DNA of 42,595 nt from a virus, in the IMG/VR virus record IMGVR_UViG_3300045988_182590. One strand, written 5' to 3'. The position numbers were made by a program, and so were the translations under genes. Each line of letters begins with the position of its first letter. The stretch's first letter is position 1. This document shows, in pieces, positions 5,453-42,595 of the stretch. The notes below the pieces were generated by a model. The model did not search any database. It was given only the letters and a program-made list of their open reading frames with translations, and was not told the DNA's origin.

Positions 5453-5584
5453 ATGACACGCGAAGAATTACTCAAAAAAGTAGCTGAAACAGTATGCGGA
5501 AGCCGTGAACAAGCGCACGGAAACCCCGCTAACACGTTTAAGCGAATTGCACGCCTTTGGACAACGTATTTGCAGAAGGCGTGA
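5453..5584 (+). pseudogene. N-terminal half (43 codons) of a small conserved phage protein (DUF6378-like); the partner half is at 7910..8068
   Basis: MTREELLKKVAETVCGSREQAHGNPANTFKRIARLWTTYLQKA-stop. Family members continue with the DVA.MM...H.DSW.D..GY block, which is found 2.3 kb downstream. Confidence 0.65.
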
Positions 5585-5591
5585 GGTGAAA

Positions 5592-5798
5592 ATGAACATT
5601 CTTGAAAAATACAGGAAAGATAACGGCTTGACGTATGCCGAACTCGCTGAACGTATGGGGCAAAAACCTTGCCGTGTTTGGAAGTGGTGCAAAAAAGGAA
5701 TCAGATGCCCCACAGCAATAATATCTATTTCAGAGCTTTTGAAGCTTGAAAAATCGACGGTTTTTGAAAAAATGACTGAAAGGAAAGAAAAAAAATGA
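5592..5798 (+). CDS. Helix-turn-helix DNA-binding protein (Cro/YdaS-like)
   Basis: GLTYAELAERMGQKPCRVWKW HTH; gaggtgaaaATG ribosome-binding site. Confidence 0.55.
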   Translation: MNILEKYRKDNGLTYAELAERMGQKPCRVWKWCKKGIRCPTAIISISELLKLEKSTVFEKMTERKEKK

Positions 5799-6052
5799 GT
5801 GAGAACATCAAAGATGTAAACGGAGTCGATTCGGCACGCTTGCTGTCGTATCTTGAGCGAATCGAACGTTTAGAAGAGGAACGAAAAGCTCTTCAAATCG
5901 ACATTAAAGAGGTGTTTGAAGAAGCAAAATCGGCGAATTTTGACGTAAAAGCAATCAAAGAGCTTTTGAAAATTCGCAAAAAAGACGAACTGGAACGCCA
6001 AGAACAGGAATACGTCGTCGAACAGTACCGACGCGCTCTTGGCATTGATTGA
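5795..6052 (+). CDS. GapR-like (DUF2312) DNA-binding protein
   Basis: LLSYLERIERLEEERKALQIDIKEVFEEAKSANFDVKAIKELLKIRKKD closely parallels Caulobacter GapR. Confidence 0.8.
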   Translation: MSENIKDVNGVDSARLLSYLERIERLEEERKALQIDIKEVFEEAKSANFDVKAIKELLKIRKKDELERQEQEYVVEQYRRALGID

Positions 6053-6055
6053 AAG

Positions 6056-6083
6056 ACGGCGGGAATTATCCCGCCGTTTTTTC
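6056..6083 (+). terminator. Rho-independent terminator, shared by the convergent genes
   Basis: Stem acggcggga/tcccgccgt with a 4-nt loop, followed by tttttt. Confidence 0.8.
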
Positions 6084-6245
6084 TTTGTACACCCATTTTT
6101 CGCCGTCAAACACAATGTCAAAACCGCTTTTAAGGTTTAACGGCTCTTTGAACGTATGAAACGGCGGTAAATCCGATTCGGAGTGGCATTTTTGCGCCCC
6201 GTTCCATTTTCCTGTTTTTTTGTCGTATGAATAAGCAATCAGCAT
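6066..6245 (-). CDS. 59-aa protein homologous to the N-terminal domain of the tail-fibre assembly protein at 20443..20886
   Basis: MLIAYSYDKKTGKW..LPPFHTFKEPLNLKSGFDIVFDGEKWVYKEK versus ..LPADCTLIEPPEAKEGFDIVWNGDAWEYKEQEK. caggag ribosome-binding site. One residue below the ORF-track cutoff. Confidence 0.6.
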   Translation of the reverse strand: MLIAYSYDKKTGKWNGAQKCHSESDLPPFHTFKEPLNLKSGFDIVFDGEKWVYKEKTAG

Positions 6246-6272
6246 AAGCGACTCCTGTTTGTTATAAAAATT

Positions 6273-6309
6273 CCCCGCCGAATAAGGAGGAAAATCGGCG
6301 GGGGTTTTA
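6273..6309. terminator. Stem-loop terminator
   Basis: Stem ccccgccga/tcggcgggg with a 13-nt loop, tttt on the plus strand, T-rich on the minus strand. Confidence 0.6.
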
Positions 6310-6356
6310 GTGCTGAATGGAATGTAGTTTCTTTATGGCATAAAAAGCCCAAAAGT

Positions 6357-6432
6357 TCAACCATTTTTTTCAGAATCAATCAGCTCTTTGATTTCATCCC
6401 GCTTCATTCTGCCGACATAAAACAAACCGTCG
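6357..6432 (-). pseudogene. Detached C-terminal coding piece of the glutaredoxin-like gene (..GLFYVGRMKRDEIKELIDSEKNG-stop)
   Basis: Joins in frame to 8231..8385 if 6427..8385 is flipped. Confidence 0.7.
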
Positions 6433-6460
6433 ATACCCGCAAATATCCGTACACCGTCAT
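6428..6460 (-). pseudogene. Detached first 11 codons of a serine invertase (MTVYGYLRVST, contains the catalytic Ser motif)
   Basis: ATG 2 nt after the methyltransferase stop. Near-identical to the N-terminus MTVYAYLRVSS at 20410. Runs out of frame into a stop after 18 codons. Confidence 0.8.
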
Positions 6461-6462
6461 TT

Positions 6463-7017
6463 TCAGATTTCCTTGTCAAATTTTTCAGTTTCGTTTCCCC
6501 AGCAATCCCAACCCGCCCGATGCTGGCGGGCAAATAGTTCTATTCGTTCCCCGCCGCAAAGGTTTTCGATTAAAGAATACTGTTCATCTGGTTTTCTGGA
6601 ATGTTCGCGGACAACACCTTGAAGAACGTTCCGAGTAGATTTGTTAAGAGTCCGAGGGTGTCCGCGCGTTCCGACAAGCAACAGTTCGGTGGCGCAACGG
6701 AAAATATATCCAGTTCCGAAAGCGGTTTTCCCGTTCTTTGTCGTCTTATGCCAAGATGCGCCTGTCTTGTATTTAAACCCCCAAGCCGCCATTGTTTCCA
6801 AAGCTTCGGGCAACATTGGAAACGTCGCCCACATAAATAGGAAACAATCTTTGTCGGCAATGTCGATAACAGGCAAAGTTTTAATGTCGTTTATAGGCAT
6901 ACAGGAATAATGACTTTCCGCGCCTTTTGCCGTGATTCCTTTTGACGAAAATGTTTTGAACTTCCACGGCGGGTCGGCAAGGATGCAGGCATATTTTTTA
7001 TTCGGAAATGGAATCAT
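6463..7017 (-). CDS. MT-A70 family N6-adenine DNA methyltransferase
   Basis: ILADPPWKF (DPPW catalytic motif); size and layout typical of phage MT-A70 enzymes. Confidence 0.8.
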   Translation of the reverse strand: MIPFPNKKYACILADPPWKFKTFSSKGITAKGAESHYSCMPINDIKTLPVIDIADKDCFLFMWATFPMLPEALETMAAWGFKYKTGASWHKTTKNGKTAFGTGYIFRCATELLLVGTRGHPRTLNKSTRNVLQGVVREHSRKPDEQYSLIENLCGGERIELFARQHRAGWDCWGNETEKFDKEI

Positions 7018-7338
7018 TTTTCGCTGTCCTTGTATTCAAAAGAACGCCCCTTTGTTTTCTTTCCTTTCCCGATTATTTTGGCAACAGTCGTCCCGTATTT
7101 TGACATTGCGTCGTGTACGGAATCGAAAACTTCCTGTGTTTCGACACAAATAACAGGACGTGAACGGAAGCCCCCCTTTACGCTTTTTCGACGACGGAAT
7201 CCGTTTTTTCATTTCTGCGATAACACCGTCGGGAGTGATTTTTGAACACTTCAACAAAAAGTCGGCTACCGCCTGTTCGGGCGTATCAAAACCGATAGGC
7301 GCAACAGCCGCCTTTTTCAAAACAACAAGATATTTCAT
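7014..7338 (-). pseudogene. Frameshifted gene. The C-terminal part is a small DNA-binding module of the type seen on phage homing endonucleases
   Basis: Frame 0 gives MKYLVVLKK..KKRKGG. After the G6 run (C6 at 7171..7176) the +1 frame reads FRSRPVICVETQEVFDSVHDAMSKYGTTVAKIIGKGKKTKGRSFEYKDSEK and stops in an ATGA overlap with the methyltransferase start. Confidence 0.55.
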
Positions 7339-7727
7339 TCTTCCTCTCCTTTTAAAAATTCTTCGTTAATTTTTTTCCCTGATTGGTCTTGTTTCTCGAC
7401 TTTAAGTGTGTATTTCATTTTCTTTCCTTTCTTTTTCCTTTTCGATAAGAGGGCGAGGAAGTCCAAAAACACTTTCCAAAATGCCTGCCTTATTCGCCCG
7501 TTATTAAGGCACTTCCACAATGTAGGACGCAATGATTCTCTGTTTTCCCCGCCTATTTCCAGTTCAGCGGGCAGTCGCGGTTTATTCTTTATTCCCCGCC
7601 GTCCGTTTTCGGTTTTACCCGAAAAATCAATTCCAACAGTTAGACGAGAAAAGACATCCTGTTGGAGCTTCACCCGCCGCTCTGTCAATTCGTGCGACTT
7701 CAGCGTCAATCGCAAATAAGACGGCAA
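7335..7727 (-). CDS. Hypothetical protein (weak)
   Basis: 130-aa ORF downstream of the promoter at 7822..7850; composition unconvincing; competes with the small ORF at 7627..7773. Confidence 0.3.
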   Translation of the reverse strand: MPSYLRLTLKSHELTERRVKLQQDVFSRLTVGIDFSGKTENGRRGIKNKPRLPAELEIGGENRESLRPTLWKCLNNGRIRQAFWKVFLDFLALLSKRKKKGKKMKYTLKVEKQDQSGKKINEEFLKGEEE

Positions 7728-7773
7728 AAATCAAGAACGCCACACTTGCAATTAAAAAAACAAAATTTTTCAT
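7627..7773 (-). CDS. Small protein with an N-terminal transmembrane/signal segment
   Basis: ggaaaggtgaaaaATG ribosome-binding site; MKNFVFLIASVAFLIFAVLFAIDAE...; 48 aa. Confidence 0.4.
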   Translation of the reverse strand: MKNFVFLIASVAFLIFAVLFAIDAEVARIDRAAGEAPTGCLFSSNCWN

Positions 7774-7821
7774 TTTTCACCTTTCCTTTTTTCGACTCGG
7801 CTTATCGCCTTTCGATAATTT

Positions 7822-7850
7822 TTTGTACCAAATTTAAAAACATAGGTCAA
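7822..7850 (-). promoter_or_regulatory. Sigma70-type promoter TTGACC-17-TACAAA with an extended -10 TG
   Basis: Minus strand reads TTGACCtatgtttttaaatttggTACAAA. Shares atgttt and aatttggtacaaa with the promoter at 10389. Confidence 0.7.
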
Positions 7851-7880
7851 CATCTTTTTTACTTTTTTTCAAAAAATGTT

Positions 7881-7908
7881 TTGATTTTTTAAAATTCACG
7901 AATAAAAT
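7881..7908 (+). promoter_or_regulatory. Candidate promoter TTGATT-16-TAAAAT, divergent from 7822..7850
   Basis: Hexamers read directly. Confidence 0.45.
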
Positions 7909-7909
7909 C

Positions 7910-8068
7910 AACGACGGAATCGACGTTCGTATAACGGAAACGGATGTCGCCGTTATGATGACACTTTTTAAAATTGCCCGCTTGCAGGGAAATCCGAAGC
8001 ACGAGGATTCGTGGGTTGATGCGGTGGGATACTTGGCTTGCGGATGCGAAAGAGAAACGGAAAAATAA
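7910..8068 (+). pseudogene. C-terminal half of the DUF6378-like gene (no start codon)
   Basis: NDGIDVRITETDVAVMMTLFKIARLQGNPKHEDSWVDAVGYLACGCERETEK-stop. Same strand and codon phase as 5453..5584. Confidence 0.65.
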
Positions 8069-8070
8069 CA

Positions 8071-8256
8071 ATGCTTGATGATGATGTTATCATCTACATT
8101 GAACAAAACGGGGCGTATACGTCCCGTCTAACGTTCAATATGAAGACGATAAGAAAGCTGACAAAACAAGTGCGTAAAGAGGTCATTGAAGACTTGGAAA
8201 GCGCAATAGATTTTATGAAAGGATTTGAAAATGGCAACTCTGATTTCAACTCGTAA
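8071..8256 (+). CDS. Hypothetical protein
   Basis: ATG 8071, 61 aa (MLDDDVIIYIEQNG...). Confidence 0.45.
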   Translation: MLDDDVIIYIEQNGAYTSRLTFNMKTIRKLTKQVRKEVIEDLESAIDFMKGFENGNSDFNS

Positions 8257-8422
8257 TTGTTTCAAATGCAGGGAAATAAAAAGGGTGTTTCCAGACCTCG
8301 ACGTTGTTTACGCTGAAGATATGCCCGCTGAAGAACTTTCAAAGAAAAACATAACACAAGTCCCCGTTTTGCAAACTGCCGACGGACAAACAGGATTGCG
8401 ACAATCAGAAAATCGGTGTTGA
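8231..8422 (+). CDS. Glutaredoxin/NrdH-like thioredoxin-fold protein with a chimeric, non-native C-terminus
   Basis: CFKC redox motif and ..ITQVPVLQTADG. The last 11 residues are an out-of-frame reading of invertase codons. Confidence 0.6.
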   Translation: MATLISTRNCFKCREIKRVFPDLDVVYAEDMPAEELSKKNITQVPVLQTADGQTGLRQSENRC

Positions 8423-8426
8423 AGCT

Positions 8427-9269
8427 TTGGCAAAACGTCGCGGGCTTGTTGTTGATAAATGGATTGAAGACGACGGCGTGTCAGGGACGAAAGAACCCGA
8501 AAAGCGCGCGCTCGGCGGTGTTTTGAAAAAACTGAAAAAGGACGACGTGATTCTTTGTTCAGAACTGTCGCGACTCGGTCGTAAATTGTTTATGATTATG
8601 AGAATACTTGAACACGCAATGACAATCGGGGCGCATATTTTCACGGAAAAGGAAAATTACGAACTGGGCGACAACGTGCAGAGTAAAGTTCTTGCTTTCG
8701 CTTTCGGACTGGTCGCCGAATTGGAACGGGAAATGATTAGCAAGCGGACCAAAGAAGCCCTCGCCGCAAAAAAAGCAAGGGGAGAGAAACTCGGTAGAGC
8801 TTTTGGCGCGAAAAACAAAATTCACAAATACGATGGTTTCTCTTTGGAGAAGTTTGAAAAAGATTATCAAAAAACTTTTTCCCTTAAATATTGCTTGGGG
8901 AAACAAAATCTGTCCACCTCGTATTTTTACGGCGGAGGTTTCAACGAAACATTAAGAGCAGAAATAATGGAGATAATCGAGAAACACAAGAAAGATAAAC
9001 CTATTGGCATTTATTGTGTAAATACTAAACATTTTCAGAAAAACGCTCTAAAAGCGTTTGGAACAACAGAAATAAAACCGATTGTTCGACTTTCCGATTT
9101 TAAGGTTTATAAATCGATTCGCTCTCTTTGGTATGATAACTTTTCAAAAGAGCTTAATCCTACTATTTATAATCTAAAAAAACTGGCAGAATGTATACAT
9201 AACGGGGACGAGTTCCACGGAAAATTCTTCGAGTTCAAAGATTTTTATGACGGCGTTTCAATCGGATAA
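8427..9269 (+). CDS. Serine invertase (Hin/Gin/Mpi-like) lacking its first ~10 codons including the catalytic Ser; extra ~100-aa C-terminal domain
   Basis: VSGTKEPEKR..SELSRLGR..QSKVLAFAFGLVAELEREMISKRTKEALAAKKARGEKLGR, then an HTH-like LGKQNLSTSYFY. Homology extends upstream of the TTG start to ..TDKQDCDNQ (from 8382). Confidence 0.75.
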   Translation: MAKRRGLVVDKWIEDDGVSGTKEPEKRALGGVLKKLKKDDVILCSELSRLGRKLFMIMRILEHAMTIGAHIFTEKENYELGDNVQSKVLAFAFGLVAELEREMISKRTKEALAAKKARGEKLGRAFGAKNKIHKYDGFSLEKFEKDYQKTFSLKYCLGKQNLSTSYFYGGGFNETLRAEIMEIIEKHKKDKPIGIYCVNTKHFQKNALKAFGTTEIKPIVRLSDFKVYKSIRSLWYDNFSKELNPTIYNLKKLAECIHNGDEFHGKFFEFKDFYDGVSIG

Positions 9270-9411
9270 AACCACCCGAACGTTGTAAAAATTTTGACGT
9301 CTTTTTGGAATGTTATCACGTCCCACCGGTTTATATTGGTGGGCGTGTATGTTTCAGAACAAATACCAACGGCGGCGATTATTCCCGACGGGCTTTTTAA
9401 ATTAAACAAAA

Positions 9412-9606
9412 TCATTTTTGACACCGCATATACACGACGTTGTTTTTTTCGACCTGTTTAATTGTTTCAGCCGTGTCGTTTTCGTAATCCAAAAAAACAG
9501 GCTGATAGAGTAGGCAAAAACCGCCATACAGACGATTTGAACACCCAGACAACAAAAGCGCACACAAAACAATAAAAAACGATGTACGGGCTTTAAATCG
9601 CTTCAT
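9412..9606 (-). CDS. Small lipoprotein
   Basis: Signal peptide with lipobox LLSGC. Confidence 0.6.
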   Translation of the reverse strand: MKRFKARTSFFIVLCALLLSGCSNRLYGGFCLLYQPVFLDYENDTAETIKQVEKNNVVYMRCQK

Positions 9607-9663
9607 TCAAACACCTCATAAAAAAACGACGACGGAAAACTTGGCAAAACCGTCGCCGTTTAT

Positions 9664-9723
9664 GATTAACGTCTTTGAGTAAGAACGCAAGGAAAAAGGA
9701 AAAAAAACGTTCAGACGTTAATC
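9664..9723. repeat. Perfect 11-bp inverted repeat gattaacgtct / agacgttaatc with a 38-bp spacer
   Basis: Read directly. Confidence 0.9.
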
Positions 9724-9759
9724 GAACTCTTATATATTGCCCTTTTCCCGTCCGTTTTG

Positions 9760-9978
9760 TCAACGGGAAAAACGTTCCTTGACTTCTTTTTGCAAATCGG
9801 TGTCGTTGTTTAAACACTCACGAATCCGCTTTGCTTCTTCAACTGCATCGCTTTCTTTTTCGGCGTGTTTGTTTCCCTCTTGCGCTTGCCCCAGTTTGTA
9901 AGATAAAAACGAAATAACGGCGACAAACACGCCAACGCTGGCAAGAACGCTCAAATCATTCATTGTTTTACCTTTCAT
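9760..9978 (-). CDS. Single-pass membrane protein with a charged helical tail
   Basis: N-terminal TM segment LSVLASVGVFVAVISFL followed by a coiled, charged region. Confidence 0.5.
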   Translation of the reverse strand: MKGKTMNDLSVLASVGVFVAVISFLSYKLGQAQEGNKHAEKESDAVEEAKRIRECLNNDTDLQKEVKERFSR

Positions 9979-10079
9979 AAAAAAACGGGATTTGTTGTGT
10001 CTGGTCTATCCCGCGAAAACCACCGTTCCGTTCGTTCTGTTCCCAAGCCAACGGACGCAACTCGGCGGACATCCGCAAA

Positions 10080-10289
10080 TTATTTTCTGTCGCTTTTTTT
10101 ACCCACGATTTTTAAAGTGCGCGTACCGTTCGGATTGACAACGGAAAAGTAATCCAAGATGTGGATGATTTTTTCAAGAACGCTGTCATCGCGAGTCGTC
10201 GGAGTAATGCGGACAATTACAGTCGCTGCCGTAACAATCGCACCTATCCAGTATATCGCTTGATTCGCATATTCGATAATGTTTTCCAT
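10080..10289 (-). CDS. Small membrane protein
   Basis: TM segment AIYWIGAIVTAATVIV followed by RITPTTRDD. Confidence 0.5.
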   Translation of the reverse strand: MENIIEYANQAIYWIGAIVTAATVIVRITPTTRDDSVLEKIIHILDYFSVVNPNGTRTLKIVGKKSDRK

Positions 10290-10388
10290 AAAGCTTTCCT
10301 TTCATTAAAAATGCTTACGTTTTCAGTTTATCAAAAAAAAGCGGTTTCTGCGATATTTTATTTTTTTGAAAAAAAACAAAAAAAATGC

Positions 10389-10417
10389 TTGCTTAATGTT
10401 TAGGAATTTGGTACAAA
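10389..10417 (+). promoter_or_regulatory. Sigma70-type promoter TTGCTT-17-TACAAA with an extended -10 TG
   Basis: TTGCTTaatgtttaggaatttggTACAAA, about 50 nt upstream of the first gene of the block. Confidence 0.65.
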
Positions 10418-10466
10418 GAAAACAAGGACAGGGCGAATCGGGTGCTCTGAAAAAAGGAAAAGGAAA

Positions 10467-10685
10467 ATGGAAGAAATCGAAATAACGGTTGACGGCGTTT
10501 TGTTGTCAATTAGCTTTGAAACAGAAACGTATTCCCTTGAGCCTTACAGTTGGGGCGTTTCAAGGGGTACGGAAACGGATGTTTACGTTAATTCCGTTTG
10601 TGTCGGCGGTGTTGACATTATGCCGCTGTTGTCTGATGAAAAAATTGAAGAAATCGAGGAAAAAGTAAGGGAGAATCTGGAATGA
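10467..10685 (+). CDS. Hypothetical protein (ISFETET motif, paralogue of 11555..11779)
   Basis: aaaaggaaaaggaaaATG ribosome-binding site; 72 aa. Confidence 0.55.
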   Translation: MEEIEITVDGVLLSISFETETYSLEPYSWGVSRGTETDVYVNSVCVGGVDIMPLLSDEKIEEIEEKVRENLE

Positions 10686-11017
10686 CAGAAGAATTGAAGT
10701 CTTGCCCGTTTTGTGGCGGAAAAGAAGTAAAGCTGTTCAAAGAGGGGAGCATTTAGGTCGTGGAGTGTCTGCAATGCTTGGCGAAAGTCGGCGCGACGGC
10801 AGAAGCTGACGTGCTGGATTTTTGGAACTACCGACCGAAAGAGGAGCAACTCGGCAAACAAATCCGAGAAATGAAGCAGAAAAACGACGCGTTAAAGCGC
10901 GAAATTTTAGAAGAACGTGAAGACAACGCCGACAATATGGAGTATCACGTCGCAGAGCGGGAACGCCTTAAAGCCGAAATTGCACGGTTGCGTAAAGCAT
11001 TGTTTTTTTTATGCTGA
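10682..11017 (+). pseudogene. Lar-like restriction-alleviation zinc-ribbon protein interrupted by an in-frame TAG (10754..10756)
   Basis: MTEELKSCPFCGGKEVKLFKEGSI-TAG-VVECLQCLAKVGATAEADVLDFWNYRPKE follows the Lar pattern CPFCGG...V.C..C.A.....EA...WN.R. Confidence 0.6.
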
Positions 11018-11234
11018 ACTGGACGGCATCGGCATTCAGCACAAATCTTTAGAGTTTGTTGACGGCAGACCCCAGCCTTTTGGAACAATCGCCAGAACAG
11101 CTCTGTTAAACTTTATCGTACCTGACGGAAGCCGTGTTGAATTGTCGAACTTGAAAAAAGCAATGGAAAGAATCGGCGACGGAGAAGGGGAATTTATTTT
11201 CCCTTTGTTGATAAAGAAAGGCGATGAAAAATGA
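11010..11234 (+). CDS. Continuation of the Lar-like/coiled-coil protein in another frame (T8 frameshift at 11003..11010)
   Basis: Removing one T gives ..RLRKALFFYAELDGIGIQHKS..; ALxFYA also occurs in ORF 4195. Confidence 0.45.
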   Translation, partial: YAELDGIGIQHKSLEFVDGRPQPFGTIARTALLNFIVPDGSRVELSNLKKAMERIGDGEGEFIFPLLIKKGDEK

Positions 11235-11570
11235 CGTTTGAAGAAAAATTGAAGCAAAAACTTGCTGTTTTGAAAGAAGTAACCGAAAAACAGAAGCAAA
11301 TCATTGAAATGCTGTGCGAAGAAAACTCTGCTTTATTGCAAAAAAAAGGATGAATTAGAAGCAAGAATCGATATATTTGATAAAAAACTTCTCAACTCCG
11401 TAAAAGAAGATTATGAAAACAAAAAATTAAAAGATGCGCTTCTTAAAATAAAGGACATTATCGAAAGCTCGCAAGATAAAAAATATCTTTCTTACTTTGA
11501 TTTGGATGCAAAAGATGCCGTTTTTATTTTAGACACTATTGAAAATGCCCTGTTATGGAGTCCGAAATGA
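11231..11570 (+). pseudogene. Coiled-coil protein split by an A8 run (11340..11347)
   Basis: ATG 11231 gives MTFEEKLKQKLAVLKEVTEKQKQIIEMLCEENSALLQKKG-stop. With A7 it continues ..LLQKKDELEARIDIFDKK.. (ORF 11304..11570). Confidence 0.5.
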
Positions 11571-11779
11571 GGATAACAATCAGTTTTGAAACAGAAACAG
11601 TCCCAGATTATATTCGGGGCGAAACGAAAGCGGAAGACAGAATTTTAGAAATAAACTTCGACGGGGAAAGGCTCGAATCATATTCCGAGTATATGGACGA
11701 TTATGATAAGAAAGAAGCCGTCGGGTGTATTCGTTCTGTTTTGAATTTATACGAAAAGAAAGAGGAGTTAAAAGGATGA
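11555..11779 (+). CDS. Hypothetical protein (ISFETET motif)
   Basis: 74-aa ORF; shares ITISFETET with 10467..10685. Confidence 0.5.
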   Translation: MESEMRITISFETETVPDYIRGETKAEDRILEINFDGERLESYSEYMDDYDKKEAVGCIRSVLNLYEKKEELKG

Positions 11780-12078
11780 CAAATGAACGTTTCAGATACA
11801 GAATTTACGACGTTGAAAATAAAAGATACGTCGATAATCCCGAAGACTTTGTGCCTTGGGATTTGCCCGACGGGTTTATCGCAGAACAATGTACGGGATT
11901 GACAGACAAAAACGGCGTCCTGATTTTCGAGGGCGATATAATGTTGATACGCAAAGAAAAAATGCGTGTTGATTGGGAAAATGCAATGGCTGGTTTTATT
12001 CTTACAGGGAACGCGAAAGAAGCGCCTGTTTATGAATATAATGTAATCGGCAATATCCACGAAAGCGGGGACAAATGA
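11776..12078 (+). CDS. YopX-family protein
   Basis: RFRYRIYD...TGLTDKNGVLIFEGDI...VIGNIHE; ATGA overlap with the upstream stop. Confidence 0.7.
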   Translation: MTNERFRYRIYDVENKRYVDNPEDFVPWDLPDGFIAEQCTGLTDKNGVLIFEGDIMLIRKEKMRVDWENAMAGFILTGNAKEAPVYEYNVIGNIHESGDK

Positions 12079-12314
12079 CACAAAACGAAAAAATGCGGTT
12101 TTACCGTGAAGCAATGGGTTGGTCGCGCATTAAATATGCCGAAATGTCGGGCTTCAACGAAAATTATGTTTTAATGGTCGAAAAAGGACGGCGCGCGGTT
12201 TCAAAGCCGTATTCCGAAAAAATGGAACGCGTCCTTTTAGAACATCCCGTTGAACTAACGGAGCGTGCCGCCGCTTTGTTGGAAGTTTTGAGACCGACAG
12301 AAAAGGTGTCATAA
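12075..12314 (+). CDS. XRE-type HTH regulator
   Basis: REAMGWSRIKYAEMSGFNENYVLMVEKGRR. Confidence 0.6.
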   Translation: MTQNEKMRFYREAMGWSRIKYAEMSGFNENYVLMVEKGRRAVSKPYSEKMERVLLEHPVELTERAAALLEVLRPTEKVS

Positions 12315-16524: not shown

Positions 16525-16610
16525 TTTCGTTGTCCCTGTAAAAACTTTAACTACTTATAGGTTAAATCAATCCGCTCTTTTTATCAACAAGTCTTTTTAG
16601 GAAAGCAAAA

Positions 16611-16633
16611 ACAACGTTTAATCTGCCGAATTT
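16611..16633. repeat. Left copy of the 23-bp inverted repeat acaacgtttaatctgccgaattt
   Basis: Perfect reverse complement of 17217..17239. Confidence 0.95.
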
Positions 16634-16934
16634 AAATGATAGGATTCCACAAGGAAGCGGAAGCCGCGGAACGGTCGGCACGTATTTATCTGAGAGCTTG
16701 CCAAACATTAAAGAGTATGTTCCATCCTCGCTACGTTGCGATTTTGGGAATTCATCTGTCTCTGGTAGTGTTTTTGAAATAGGCGACGCATCAGGTTACA
16801 AATACACTGCTGGAACGGGTTTCGGGTCAACCTCTGGATTTGACTTAAACGTATCACGTAAATACCCTACATACAAAGACAACGCTCCAGTCCAACAATC
16901 CGCGACGGTGGTTGTTTTCTGCATCCGATACTAA
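16611..16934 (+). other. Silent alternative tail-fibre C-terminal cassette (no start codon; begins inside the inverted repeat)
   Basis: Frame open from 16566. TTFNLPNLNDRIPQGSGSRGTVGTYLSESLPN... continues the tail-collar motif and ends CIRY-stop like the expressed cassette. Confidence 0.8.
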
Positions 16935-17830
16935 TATCGGATGCAATATAAGCACGTGGCGTAGGCGGGAATAACTCTATCAACATTTGAATAAACTTGC
17001 GACGAACGAGATGCGTCGAATCCAACCGCCACATCATTCGCTTCCGAACCAGCGGGATTTCCTCTTACAACGCTGAATGTATTATAAAAAGCTCCGCTTG
17101 TTTTAAAGGATAGTGCGATTCTGTCACCAGTAAAAACGCCTGTAATGTTCGGTAAACTTCCGTTTCCTATCTCGCCAATAGGAATAGAACCAGAGTACCA
17201 CGGTGCACGATCAAGCAAATTCGGCAGATTAAACGTTGTATTTCCGTCCCCTGCACCCCACGTTGTCCCGATGACATTGAACAGACGCGCGTAAGTGATG
17301 CGGGAAATAGCCGCGCCGTTGCAAATCAGATAACCGTCGGGAGCGTCATTTGCAGGCCAAGTGATAATTATTCCTGTCGGAAGTCCCGCGTCAATAAAAG
17401 CCCAATGCACGCCGTCAAGATATTCGGGATTTGTTAAAAAGTTAAACGTGTTGTTTTCGACAAGGGAATAAACCGCCGTCGGTTTTCCGCCGACAATCGC
17501 CCACAACAAAGCCCCCTGCGGATACCCGCCGATAGCGTCTGAAACTGCTTGATTGAACGAATATGTACCGCCGTTTTGAGCGAAGAAGTTATGTTGCGAA
17601 ACGGTGTTAAAAAGACCGTTAAAGTCTTGCTGTTTCGGGGGAAGTCCCGATACCTGTGTCGGCAAAGGATTTTCAATTACGGGCATACGGGTAATGGCAG
17701 GAAAACCCTCTTGGAAAGATGCACGATTCGTCCCTGTTGCGCCGTTCGGAATAGCGTTAATGTTTTCGCTTGTCGCCTGTGCGGCAATCGGTTGAGGGAT
17801 TACGACGGGGGTTGTATTTGAAGTCGCCAT
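16931..17830 (-). CDS. Tail fibre with a phage tail-collar domain
   Basis: GIIITWPANDAPDGYLICNGAAISRITYARLFNVIGTTWGAGDGNTTFNLPNLLDR. Confidence 0.8.
   Translation of the reverse strand: MATSNTTPVVIPQPIAAQATSENINAIPNGATGTNRASFQEGFPAITRMPVIENPLPTQVSGLPPKQQDFNGLFNTVSQHNFFAQNGGTYSFNQAVSDAIGGYPQGALLWAIVGGKPTAVYSLVENNTFNFLTNPEYLDGVHWAFIDAGLPTGIIITWPANDAPDGYLICNGAAISRITYARLFNVIGTTWGAGDGNTTFNLPNLLDRAPWYSGSIPIGEIGNGSLPNITGVFTGDRIALSFKTSGAFYNTFSVVRGNPAGSEANDVAVGFDASRSSQVYSNVDRVIPAYATCLYCIRY
17217..17239. repeat. Right copy of the 23-bp inverted repeat, inside the tail-fibre gene
   Basis: aaattcggcagattaaacgttgt; encodes TTFNLPN on the minus strand. Confidence 0.95.
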
Positions 17831-19997: not shown

Positions 19998-20410
19998 TGA
20001 ACGCCTTTCATTTCGTTAAATCCTATAACAATTTGAAATCTTTGTAAAGGCAAAATCACGGGACGGAAATACAACATTTTCGACTGCGGCGAATCATCAA
20101 GAACAAAGTTTTCTTTAACCGAGTAAACACGAACGCCCTTTTCAAGCAAATCTTCAAACAAGCGGCAAAGTGTGAATATACGGCGGGACAAGCAGGACAA
20201 TTCAGAAACAATAACAACATCGCCCGATTTCAAACGTCGGGCAAGGCTTCCAAGATTACGGAGTTTCGGCTCTTTTGTCCCCGAAACTTTGTCAACAATG
20301 TATTTGTCGATTTGAACATTCAAAGCAACGGCTTTGGCATCCACGCCTTGCCGCTGATTTTGTTCGTCTTGAGAAACAGATGATACCCGTAAATATGCGT
20401 AAACAGTCAT
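19994..20410 (-). CDS. Truncated serine-recombinase catalytic domain (paralogue of 8427..9269) without E-helix or HTH
   Basis: MTVYAYLRVSSVSQDEQNQ...VSGTKEPKLR...SELSCLSRR...QSKMLYF, then unrelated sequence running into the W-like start. Confidence 0.7.
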   Translation of the reverse strand: MTVYAYLRVSSVSQDEQNQRQGVDAKAVALNVQIDKYIVDKVSGTKEPKLRNLGSLARRLKSGDVVIVSELSCLSRRIFTLCRLFEDLLEKGVRVYSVKENFVLDDSPQSKMLYFRPVILPLQRFQIVIGFNEMKGVQ

Positions 20411-42444: not shown

Positions 42445-42595
42445 ATGACTGAAAAACTAATCAAATGCGCTTGGTGCGGCGCATACTTCAAAGAAAAAGA
42501 ACGCCCACACGGAAGCCGACAGAAATACTGTTCTGTGAAGTGTCGCGTTAAAGCAAATTATGCTCAAAAGGCGGAAACTTTGAAACAATCCAAAC
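42445..42595 (+). CDS. Zinc-ribbon protein, 5' part. The CDS crosses the circular junction and ends at 325 (118 aa in total)
   Basis: ATG 42445 follows gagggataaaaa. MTEKLIKCAWCGAYFKEKERPHGSRQKYCSVKCR is a CxxC...CxxxC ribbon. The frame is continuous with ORF 59..325 through the overlap. Confidence 0.6.
   Translation, partial: MTEKLIKCAWCGAYFKEKERPHGSRQKYCSVKCRVKANYAQKAETLKQSK
42477..42595. repeat. Second copy of the terminal overlap (identical to 1..119)
   Basis: Exact identity to 1..119. Confidence 0.97.

Follow-up and report, generated by a model that had tools for sequence, protein, structure and literature searches.

DNA segments are permuted or turned over in several described systems, each of which resembles in part the locus analysed here. 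In the R64 Rci/sfx shufflon, a tyrosine recombinase acts on multiple conserved 19-bp sfx repeats; one gene thereby acquires alternative C-termini, and cultures are heterogeneous. The Hin/Gin/Cin/Min systems (for instance, the Mu G segment, the P1 C segment and p15B Min) pair a small phage serine recombinase with adjoining inverted DNA; invertible segments of the Hin/Gin type also have a recombinational enhancer and depend on Fis. Intragenic invertons, described in gut bacteria, lie between inverted repeats, are turned over reversibly by invertases and recode a protein (Chanin et al., bioRxiv 10.1101/2023.03.11.532203, PMC10028968). Finally, mosaicism of phage genomes is the subject of an illegitimate-recombination model, which Martinsohn et al. 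2008 (PMC2327257) discuss.

The window, that is, the whole stretch of 42,595 nucleotides that was analysed (IMG/VR record IMGVR_UViG_3300045988_182590), is the closed ~42.5-kb genome of an uncultivated human-gut myophage. Its early region shares traits with each of these systems. As in the R64 shufflon, adjacent segments have been permuted by inversions with common end points. As in Hin/Gin/Cin/Min, a small serine recombinase adjoins the inverted DNA, the exchange was conservative and one of the two events has a 2-nt overlap; as in phage Mu, the genome contains a tail-fibre cassette. Like intragenic invertons, the inversions have end points in coding sequences of a gut-associated genome. Like illegitimate (RecA-independent) inversions, they have breakpoints that share only 2-6 nt and lie within genes and one leader region, they are rare, lineage-restricted and fixed, and the phage genome includes genes of a RecT/YqaJ module for recombination.

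Interrupted genes and recombinases of the phage

The first of three interrupted genes encodes a DUF6378 protein. Its N-terminal half (5453..5584, plus strand) is translated as MTREELLKKVAETVCGSREQAHGNPANTFKRIARLWTTYLQKA and a stop, and its C-terminal half (7910..8068, plus strand), which begins without a start codon, as NDGIDVRITETDVAVMMTLFKIARLQGNPKHEDSWVDAVGYLACGCERETEK and a stop; with an offset of 2457 nt (819 x 3), the two share one absolute codon phase. The two halves do not belong to unrelated families, since the N fragment matches Pfam DUF6378 (PF19905) at profile positions 1-38 of 81 (E 5.8e-10) and the C fragment at positions 37-79 (E 8e-16). Searched as a joined 93-aa protein, they align in one stretch, full-length, to positions 1-79 of 81 with 102 bits (E 2.1e-29), above the curated cut-off of 27.1 bits. 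Intact homologues of 92-95 aa do not stop at YLQKA and cross the junction uninterrupted (...WTTYLQNDGI(D/E)V...). Eleven of them, P0001 to P0011, are 76-96% identical to the joined protein, the best being P0001 (93 aa, 96% identity over 100% of the joined protein). In the N half, only codons 1-41 are native, and the terminal 'KA-stop' comes from the old 5′ leader of the HTH gene. Judged by these matches, the two halves are one gene, with a likeness far beyond chance. A preliminary description of this DNA had proposed just that, two same-strand halves of one DUF6378 gene, and the Pfam search and the intact homologues confirm it to the base; in related contigs (L016-L027 and L202-L208) the gene is contiguous, in the layout that was then predicted.

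The same description held that an invertase and a glutaredoxin-like gene were likewise split, and both prove to be real and repaired in the predicted order. Serine recombinase 1 (305 aa) is reassembled as rc(6460..6427) + 8386..9269, where rc denotes the reverse complement. The rejoined product has the N-terminal catalytic domain and the YxRVS serine motif, matches Resolvase (PF00239) over profile positions 1-144 of 145 with 114.9 bits and PHROG 125 'DNA invertase' with E 1.7e-35, and is identical to the intact P0195 in 304/305 residues. In the window, the serine motif (6460..6427) is physically apart from residues 12-305 (8386..9269), and the gene callers' version of the remainder is a 280-aa ORF from a TTG at 8427, without the catalytic serine. 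Relatives carrying the recombinase cassette have an intact serine recombinase of 305-310 aa; the cassette is missing from L202 and L203 and occupies another place in L011-L015. The third gene, for a 74-aa CxxC protein with a putative thioredoxin fold (Grx-like), is reassembled as 8231..8385 + rc(6426..6357). The exact joined protein, 100% identical, occurs intact in other contigs; it has a CFKC motif and matches PHROG 22 'thioredoxin domain' (E 1.3e-7), while Thioredoxin_3 gives 16.8 bits, below its cut-off of 24.8.

Elsewhere in the window (16600-17250) there is a genuine Mu-G-like tail-fibre inversion cassette. A second invertase, also outside the early region, is truncated by a separate ~1-kb deletion; it is intact in relatives, where it has 199-208 aa. 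The deletion joins the coding region of this invertase to the edge of a genuine crossover site.

Table 1. Features and junctions of the rearranged early region, in window coordinates
Feature	Position	Strand	Basis
N-terminal DUF6378 half	5453..5584	+	profile match; L016 continuous across junction
Junction A/X, AA microhomology, s1 joined to inverted s3	5576..5577		2-nt BLAST-segment overlap, all relatives
HTH regulator gene, 68 aa	5592..5798	+	HTH_3 (weak); PHROG transcriptional regulator
GapR-like DNA-binding protein gene	5795..6052	+	GapR_DNA-bd, 84.6 bits
Terminator-like hairpin 3′ of GapR-like gene	~6055-6085		sequence
orf59	6066..6245	-	between Grx-like gene and GapR in all relatives
G+C-rich hairpin then U-run, terminator-like	6273..6309	-	-19.7 kcal/mol, z = -5.3
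C-terminal Grx-like half	6357..6432	-	exact joined protein intact elsewhere; PHROG 22 match
Junction X/Y, CGACGG copy, s2 joined to s4	6427..6432	-	6-nt BLAST-segment overlap
Recombinase 1 codons 1-11, MTVYGYLRVST with catalytic-serine motif YLRVS	6427..6460	-	tblastn residues 1-11, 100% identical
MT-A70 family DNA methyltransferase gene, intact	6463..7017	-	119 bits
orf100 and orf130, intact, same operon	7036..7727	-	synteny
Divergent promoter region (putative), AT-rich	7780..7909		
C-terminal DUF6378 half, no start codon	7910..8071 (end also given as 8068)	+	profile positions 37-79
Junction Y/Z, AA	7910-7911		BLAST breakpoints
orf61, intact	8071..8256	+	synteny
N-terminal Grx-like half, CFKC motif	8231..8385	+	exact joined protein intact elsewhere
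Junction Z/B, CGACGG	8380-8385		BLAST breakpoints
Rest of recombinase 1, residues 12-305	8386..9269	+	profile match, homology

Two overlapping inversions with exact breakpoints

The region is described by blocks A (to 5577), X (5578..6432), Y (6433..7909), Z (7910..8385) and B (from 8386), whose order in the window is A-X-Y-Z-B. BLAST breakpoints are always at 5577/7910, 8385/6432, 5576/7911 and 6427/8380, with overlaps of 2 and 6 nt, and the block borders drawn in the preliminary description (5577/5578, 6432/6433, 7909/7910 and 8385/8386) are exact within these microhomologies. Sixteen independent contigs of related phages (L016-L027, L202-L208), which come from different samples and have 94-98% nucleotide identity, show the order A-Z-X'-Y'-B (a prime marks inversion), exactly the one that had been reconstructed. 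There, DUF6378, orf61, the Grx-like gene, the hairpin and orf59 read rightward and GapR and HTH leftward; the divergent promoter region follows and, next to it, MT-A70 and the recombinase read rightward. All relatives have an intact DUF6378 gene and an intact 74-aa thioredoxin-fold gene.

The window was rebuilt in this order as ..5575 + AA + 7912..8379 + CGACGG + rc(5578..6426) + TT + rc(6433..7909) + CGACGG + 8386.. and gave single colinear HSPs to the relatives across all four sites, s1 to s4. Through s1-s3 there is one HSP, for instance of 1,927 nt with 1 gap (L019) or of 2,358 nt (L203), and the rebuilt sequence is also colinear with relatives through s4. The rebuilt segment is as long as that of the window, with zero bases gained or lost, and the DNA between the DUF6378 halves is not a simple insertion with target-site duplication.

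The breakpoints and the path between the two orders bear out the suggestion of two successive inversions. These were described as nested; in effect, they overlap, with block Z common to both. An exhaustive search finds exactly one path of two reversals, with [Z X'] first and [Z' Y'] second. Thus, the AA/TT event came first, as had been guessed. Since the two CGACGG copies form direct repeats in the ancestral order, the second event was possible only after the first. The intermediate genome, A-X-Z'-Y'-B, was not found among the contigs searched, so that the two-step history rests on parsimony.

The missing intermediate might instead reflect a single complex replication-based event, in which serial template switching (chromoanasynthesis or MMBIR-like) gave A-X-Y-Z-B directly. 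Every junction has microhomology, and an 8-bp inverted repeat, CTGCCGAC...GTCGGCAG, located on s2 could stall or fold DNA. Nevertheless, this would require four switches, with each segment copied exactly once and not one base duplicated or deleted. Template-switch products typically show copy-number changes, and the four junctions here are two reciprocal pairs, as two crossovers predict; this account is therefore very unlikely.

Fixation in one viable lineage

At least 16 sample assemblies yielded around 30 contigs that match the window at 99.9-100% identity, and the junctions in these are of the window type only. Besides the IMG record, they include MEGAHIT k127 contigs, SPAdes NODE contigs and scaffolds; the samples are from a Fiji-islands cohort (PRJNA217052). 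Circular-closing assemblies with a 119-nt terminal overlap are found in many individuals; the rearranged lineage is viable. In the relatives, junctions are canonical only, with the rearranged ones in none, so that the derived state occupies one lineage and the ancestral state its outgroups. None of ~46 contigs examined mixes window and canonical junctions, a result at the assembly level; because these contigs have only 2-3x coverage, minor isoforms might exist at the read level. The rejoined genes show no decay. They differ from intact orthologues almost only synonymously, with 21 synonymous and 1 non-synonymous differences for the recombinase (against L027), ratios of 5:1, 8:0 and 4:0 for the Grx-like gene against three relatives and 10:2 for DUF6378; the breaks are therefore recent.

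Multiple-displacement amplification is known to generate spurious inverted chimeras joined at short microhomology. Nevertheless, a chimera of assembly or amplification is effectively refuted, its probability being negligible: the same junctions recur in at least 16 independently assembled samples and with different assemblers, no bases are missing and all four junctions fit together as products of reciprocal exchange.

The preliminary description also called the region shufflon-like, and an active, reversible multi-inversion switch might toggle between isoforms that differ in how HTH/GapR, the methyltransferase and the recombinase are expressed. A recombinase gene does adjoin the region, and the ancestral and present layouts would both keep intact genes behind co-oriented promoters. 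However, a shufflon has at least three conserved crossover repeats at its borders, in both orientations, and an adjacent Rci-type tyrosine recombinase; here, only 2-nt and 6-nt identities are present at the borders, and the neighbour is a split serine recombinase. Coexisting isoforms are likewise absent at the assembly level, the ~30 contigs of the lineage having one junction set. None of the R64 features given above is present. Unlike Hin/Gin/Cin/Min, the early-region junctions lack sites of ~26 bp, the two orientations are not found side by side, there are no alternative gene ends and the events destroyed genes, the recombinase included. In contrast to intragenic invertons, the locus lacks flanking inverted repeats of that kind, is fixed in its state and has genes that are simply broken. 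In addition, neither recombinase is intact at present, the first being split and the second truncated, three coding genes were destroyed with no alternative products, and even the genuine tail-fibre cassette occurs in one orientation only in this lineage (5/5 spanning contigs). Since junction state follows lineage perfectly, an active switch is contradicted at the assembly level and is highly improbable.

Agent of the inversions and consequences for transcription

Within each pair, the sites share only AA/TT or CGACGG/CCGTCG, and the exchange was reciprocal with no net change, as in illegitimate inversion. No inverted or direct repeats longer than these microhomologies were found at the junctions, where the similarity of the flanks is at chance (15/52 vs a null of 14.8; 17/56 vs 18.8). 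A Hin/Gin-type core of the AAACCNNGGTTT type is not enriched, with none at the junctions, nor is there at these an inverted pair of imperfectly palindromic sites of ~26 bp. Nor do the junctions significantly resemble the crossover site of the phage's own tail-fibre cassette (best background fraction 0.0014 per position, with 70 positions tested). CGACGG is a common hexamer here, with 63 copies vs 29 expected. Serine recombinases need 2-nt identity, while annealing-type short-homology events use identity such as 6 nt. The dissimilarity of the sites suggests that the inversions were independent of a site-specific recombinase. Thus, we consider it probable, with good confidence, that two overlapping reciprocal inversions arose by illegitimate, microhomology-level recombination and left a frozen rearrangement, not a working switch. 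This would be a distinctive case, as two overlapping and perfectly reciprocal inversions can be followed base by base in a natural population, whereas the mosaic joints documented in phages are mostly replacements or indels rather than inversions.

In the ancestral order, the genes that read rightward were DUF6378, orf61, the Grx-like gene, orf59 and, beyond the divergent promoter region, orf130, orf100, MT-A70 and recombinase 1; between orf59 and this promoter region, GapR and HTH read leftward. First, Z-X' was inverted by an exchange that joined DUF6378, at its codon 42 (s1), to a site 14 nt 5′ of the HTH start codon (s3), the two having only AA/TT in common. This split DUF6378, parted HTH-GapR from their own promoter and put them behind the replication-gene operon. 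Then, the two CGACGG hexamers, brought into inverted orientation by the first event, recombined between the Grx-like gene (s2) and recombinase 1 (s4), inverting Z'-Y' and splitting both genes. This second inversion cuts recombinase 1 at its catalytic-serine codon. The agent was presumably recombinase-independent. Candidates are crossing-over at short homology, an exchange of the topoisomerase type and, where short inverted repeats occur, strand-switching during replication; the RecT/YqaJ system of the phage may have assisted.

Some observations count against the illegitimate reading. Site-specific recombinases, too, characteristically exchange DNA with perfect conservation, as seen at the four junctions, and the AA/TT overlap of the first event has exactly the 2-nt crossover size of serine recombinases. 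Moreover, counting the ~1-kb deletion, 2/6 breakpoints lie in recombinase genes, which make up ~3.5% of the genome (post-hoc p ~0.02). Perhaps, then, a small serine recombinase of the phage itself, either recombinase 1 or the Gin-like tail-fibre invertase intact in relatives, performed both inversions off target, at non-cognate pseudo-sites. The second event would then have been self-inactivating, freezing the arrangement through the cut in the catalytic-serine codon. The phage family encodes two such enzymes, a real inversion cassette is present at the tail fibre, and the third rearrangement of the lineage is the deletion between the second invertase and the crossover-site edge. P1 Cin, in work from the 1980s associated with Iida and Hiestand-Nauer, reportedly uses low-homology 'quasi' sites if the central dinucleotides match. 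Nevertheless, the four sites are unlike each other and unlike the tail-fibre crossover consensus, both partners of each event would need to be pseudo-sites, and the central dinucleotides would differ between the two events. The 6-nt identity is not needed by serine-recombinase chemistry, and no second lineage shows similar events, though these recombinases are widespread. We thus regard off-target recombination as unlikely.

As for transcription, the divergent-operon layout of the preliminary description stands, being that of the relatives, whereas its two promoters fare less well. The putative old HTH promoter at 7881..7908 (plus strand; TTGATT-16-TAAAAT, 9/12 consensus) is a weak match and now points into block Z, and that at 7822..7850 was not returned by the consensus scan; the region overall is not enriched in promoters over shuffles. 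The argument from transcriptional coherence therefore leans on weak consensus matches. In relatives, the HTH gene reads leftward and adjoins the divergent promoter region; in the window, it starts 14 nt 3′ of the A/X junction, in the same direction as the upstream replication-gene operon. The 6273..6309 hairpin sits downstream of the C-terminal Grx-like half. Pfam and PHROG searches returned no family matches for orf100 and orf130.

The three broken genes appear to be accessory and dispensable; the cassette of recombinase 1, for one, is lacking in L202 and L203. The lineage probably survived because of this and because each intact gene would lie downstream of a co-oriented promoter. Most probably, then, the region is the frozen scar of an ordinary genome rearrangement and not an active switch that shuffles genes.

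Gene order in related phages and repair of the split genes

In the window, the blocks of the early region follow one another as A-X-Y-Z-B, and the preliminary description had derived this from an order A-Z-X'-Y'-B, where a prime denotes the reverse complement. The latter is the gene order of all 16 related phage contigs (L016-L027 and L202-L208), which come from unrelated samples and were collected through intact homologues and the exact GapR protein. In these relatives, a contiguous DUF6378 gene (93 aa) is followed rightward by orf61, the Grx-like gene (74 aa) and orf59; GapR and HTH are read leftward and precede the divergent promoter region, after which small ORFs, MT-A70 and, if its cassette is present, the recombinase all point rightward. 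When the window is compared with each relative by BLAST, the alignment breaks at the same four places, located in the DUF6378 gene (s1), in the Grx-like gene (s2), upstream of HTH (s3) and in recombinase 1 (s4), the split serine recombinase of this region. At two of the joints, neighbouring segments have 2 nt (AA/TT) in common; at the remaining two, they have 6 nt (CGACGG) in common. The ancestral order rebuilt from the bases of the window has an unchanged length, with the outer joints 2,810 nt apart, and aligns with the relatives in single colinear HSPs through all four sites. Thus, no base was gained or lost, and the proposed reconstruction is correct. GenBank phages gave no megablast match, and a search of IMG/VR with MT-A70 returned distant relatives only (identity of at most 79%).

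Coordinates of blocks and features in the window (rc, reverse complement)
Feature	Position	Strand	Remarks
Terminal direct overlap	1-119 / 42477-42595		119 nt
Block A	..5577		
Block X	5578..6432		
Block Y	6433..7909		
Block Z	7910..8385		
Block B	8386..		
DUF6378, first half	5453..5584		Pfam profile positions 1-38
DUF6378, second half	7910..8068		Pfam profile positions 37-79
Grx-like gene	8231..8385 + rc(6426..6357)		74-aa CxxC thioredoxin-fold protein
Grx-like breakpoint (s2), split in the window	8370-8385 / 6413-6432		
Recombinase 1	rc(6460..6427) + 8386..9269		305 aa, complete Resolvase domain
Hairpin	6273..6309		
Former HTH-GapR promoter	7881..7908		predicted; weak consensus match
Divergent promoter regions	7819-7876 / 10363-10420		58-nt inverted similarity, 72%
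Tail-fibre inversion cassette	16600-17250		
Inverted repeats of the cassette	16600-16640 + 17210-17250		41 nt
Tail-fibre gene	16931..17830	-	
Second, Gin-like serine recombinase	20410..20066	-	residues 1-116 only + 22-aa unrelated tail

The two DUF6378 ORFs are exactly those given beforehand, and they are indeed halves of one gene. Their concatenated translation matches profile positions 1-79 in a single stretch (102 bits), and among about 5.8 billion proteins it retrieves contiguous proteins of 92-95 aa, the best of them 96% identical. Intact homologues run through the proposed joint as ...WTTYLQNDGI(D/E)V.... The other two genes thought to be split are so as well: rejoined recombinase 1 shares 304 of 305 residues with an intact orthologue (P0195), and the exact rejoined Grx-like protein is present intact in other assemblies. 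The proteins of 43, 63 and 280 aa that pipelines call in this region are gene fragments, one of them annotated as 'DNA invertase' despite being without the catalytic serine, and comparison with relatives can repair such split genes of viral contigs. In clustering at 90% identity, the 43-aa DUF6378 fragment belongs to a cluster (proteins P0189 and P0190) that is represented by a 444-aa protein, which was rejected as kin because it is unrelated; this clustering artefact could mislead annotation of the fragment.

Fixation in the lineage and the state of its invertases

About 30 contigs, drawn from no fewer than 16 sample assemblies produced with different assemblers, carry the MT-A70 protein and the 43-aa and 280-aa fragments; the lineage samples belong to PRJNA217052, a Fiji cohort. 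These contigs span the junctions and are 99.9-100% identical to the window. The lineage is nearly clonal. In a census with 40-nt junction probes, lineage contigs were of the window type only and relatives of the canonical type (their own arrangement) only, with no mixed case. The rearrangement is therefore real and fixed in the lineage. In addition, the direct overlap between its ends closes the window into a circle of about 42,476 bp, making it a complete replicon with no host flanks.

Neither an un-rearranged twin nor an intermediate was found. The exact joined DUF6378 and joined recombinase 1 are both absent from a collection of 15 billion proteins, and a 30-mer of the repaired s4 had no match in IMG/VR. 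Its sole metagenome match was rejected, being an unrelated host recombinase of 201 aa in which the conserved motif also occurs. Nor did any mixed state turn up around the genes for GapR and MT-A70 or around the 43-aa and 280-aa fragments. Synonymous to non-synonymous differences from intact orthologues amount to 21:1 for rejoined recombinase 1, to 5:1, 8:0 and 4:0 for the Grx-like gene, and to 10:2 and 5:3 for DUF6378. Judging by these ratios, purifying selection acted on the broken genes until recently, and they show no decay.

Recombinase 1 is an accessory, movable cassette the size of an ORF (about 930 bp). In most relatives, its place is after MT-A70; two relatives (L202 and L203, where MT-A70 has 192 aa) lack it, and in five further contigs (L011-L015) it stands after an N6_Mtase gene. 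Its catalytic domain (residues 1-162) is 65-75% identical to 200-aa recombinases in metagenome-assembled genomes (MAGs) of gut and rumen Alphaproteobacteria (L041-L120), while its C-terminal 145 aa, which stand where an HTH_7 domain is usual, match no family. These features point to a domain swap and to a host among the Alphaproteobacteria. GapR is an alphaproteobacterial protein family. Across 185,579 species genomes, there are only relatives of the catalytic domain and no full-length copy; consequently, these genomes hold no attachment-site information, and a prophage or integrase role was rejected. An integrated copy of the phage was looked for and not found.

A second serine recombinase, near 20 kb, is also broken. 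In relatives, the gene is complete (199-208 aa; P0202 and P0203) and has an additional tail-fibre cassette behind it, and about 1 kb is missing from the window at this point (compare 8001-9353 of the related contig L212). The deletion joins ..CAGTCGAAAATG of the invertase gene to TTGTATTTCC, which lies where a crossover repeat has its edge. With recombinase 1 split and this enzyme truncated, both invertases of the lineage are dead. This phage can do without DUF6378, the Grx-like gene and the two serine recombinases. The tail-fibre element is a genuine inversion cassette and looks like the G segment of Mu: its repeats have in common a perfect 23-nt core, ACAACGTTTAATCTGCCGAATTT, which encodes TTFNLPNL, and the 569 nt between them hold two convergent alternative C-termini of the tail-fibre gene, both ending in ..CIRY. 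Relatives (L027 and L212) have unrelated cassettes between the same repeats. In this lineage, all five spanning contigs show one orientation, which is consistent with the loss of both invertases. Among relatives with an intact invertase, L212 carries three crossover repeats (8718-12203; the contig ends at the third), and two inverted ones flank a 2.9-kb essential block with the sheath initiator, Baseplate_J, the wedge and the constant part of the tail fibre. A programmed inversion of this block could reverse the baseplate genes and would make the system a multi-site (Min-like) one.

Order and cause of the two inversions

With the inner three blocks written as a signed permutation, (1,2,3) in the ancestor and (-2,-3,1) in the window, exhaustive search finds only one path of two reversals, in which [Z X'] is inverted first and then [Z' Y']. 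The inversions had been described as nested, but they overlap on block Z instead. Their order is fixed independently by the CGACGG copies, which are direct repeats in the ancestral order and become inverted only once the first event has occurred. In that event, codon 42 of DUF6378 became linked to a position that lies 14 nt before the start codon of HTH, and the stop codon of the 43-aa fragment comes from the old HTH leader. The second linked the Grx-like gene to recombinase 1, and its joint falls precisely on the codons for YLRVS-T. The data demonstrate two reciprocal exchanges, one at an identity of 2 nt and the other at one of 6 nt. A single replication event with multiple switches is unlikely to have produced them, since the window contains each segment a single time, complete to the last base. 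In the intact Grx-like gene, the breakpoint lies inside an 8-bp inverted repeat, CTGCCGAC-N12-GTCGGCAG, a potential hairpin at the crossover.

The region had been called shufflon-like, but the evidence says that it is not a programmed system. No long or imperfect repeats extend beyond AA and CGACGG at the junctions. In the recombining orientation, their flanks agree at 15 of 52 and 17 of 56 positions, as by chance (null means of 14.8 and 18.8), and searches for dyad symmetry or a motif common to s1-s4 were negative or at chance level. A Hin/Gin-type core is absent, and a 7-mer that s1 or s2 has in common with the tail-fibre crossover site was judged not significant. Furthermore, the enzyme adjacent to the region is a serine recombinase that the second event itself destroyed. 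The defining features of shufflons and Hin/Gin systems are thus missing, and membership of either fails. CGACGG was rejected as a specific site, as the window has 63 copies (28.9 expected; none of 100 shuffles reached 63) and their strand follows the coding strand; the excess is likely caused by codon or dipeptide (Asp-Gly) usage. The copies are mostly on the plus strand before about 17 kb and mostly on the minus strand from 17 to 39 kb. The region holds a double inversion that has become frozen. Its kind is known in principle, and it is not a new switching system.

As to the agent, illegitimate recombination independent of a recombinase ranks first, given the lack of site similarity, the 6-nt identity of annealing size, the inverted repeat at s2 and the RecT/YqaJ module present in the genome. 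Alternatively, both inversions and the deletion of about 1 kb could be off-target acts of the phage's own DNA invertases on pseudo-sites. Use of quasi-sites is reported for Cin; a search on Cin quasi-sites in one literature library returned nothing. The same window does hold a genuine inversion cassette, and the deletion joins recombinase coding sequence to the edge of a genuine crossover repeat; nevertheless, a PWM derived from the natural tail-fibre crossover sites of this phage has no significant match at s1-s4, and this origin is improbable. On this improbable account, the damage, whose last inversion went through the catalytic-serine codon of recombinase 1, would have been self-inflicted and self-terminating and would also have rewired the HTH/GapR module. 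If the off-target account were true, the genome would be an in-the-wild record of such invertase activity.

Predicted transcription after the rearrangement and its meaning

HTH and GapR now stand directly behind the replication-gene operon, and their former predicted promoter is directed into the second half of DUF6378, orf61 and onward. The orf130-orf100-MT-A70 operon keeps its own promoter and would now run into the hairpin and then orf59. In this layout, each intact gene would still lie downstream of a co-oriented promoter, which plausibly explains the viability of the lineage. The similarity between the divergent promoter regions, which includes TTTGGTACAAA and would form direct repeats in the ancestral orientation, may represent a shared operator for the HTH protein.

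Overall, the finding is of moderate interest, which lies in its base-pair resolution, in the survival of a lineage in which three genes are broken and both invertases dead, and in whether the invertases caused the damage. It provides a base-resolved natural case in which two reciprocal inversions, at sites of almost no homology, have rearranged the early region of a phage. HTH and GapR tolerate relocation to the replication operon, away from their own promoter, and the rearranged phage still spreads among people.
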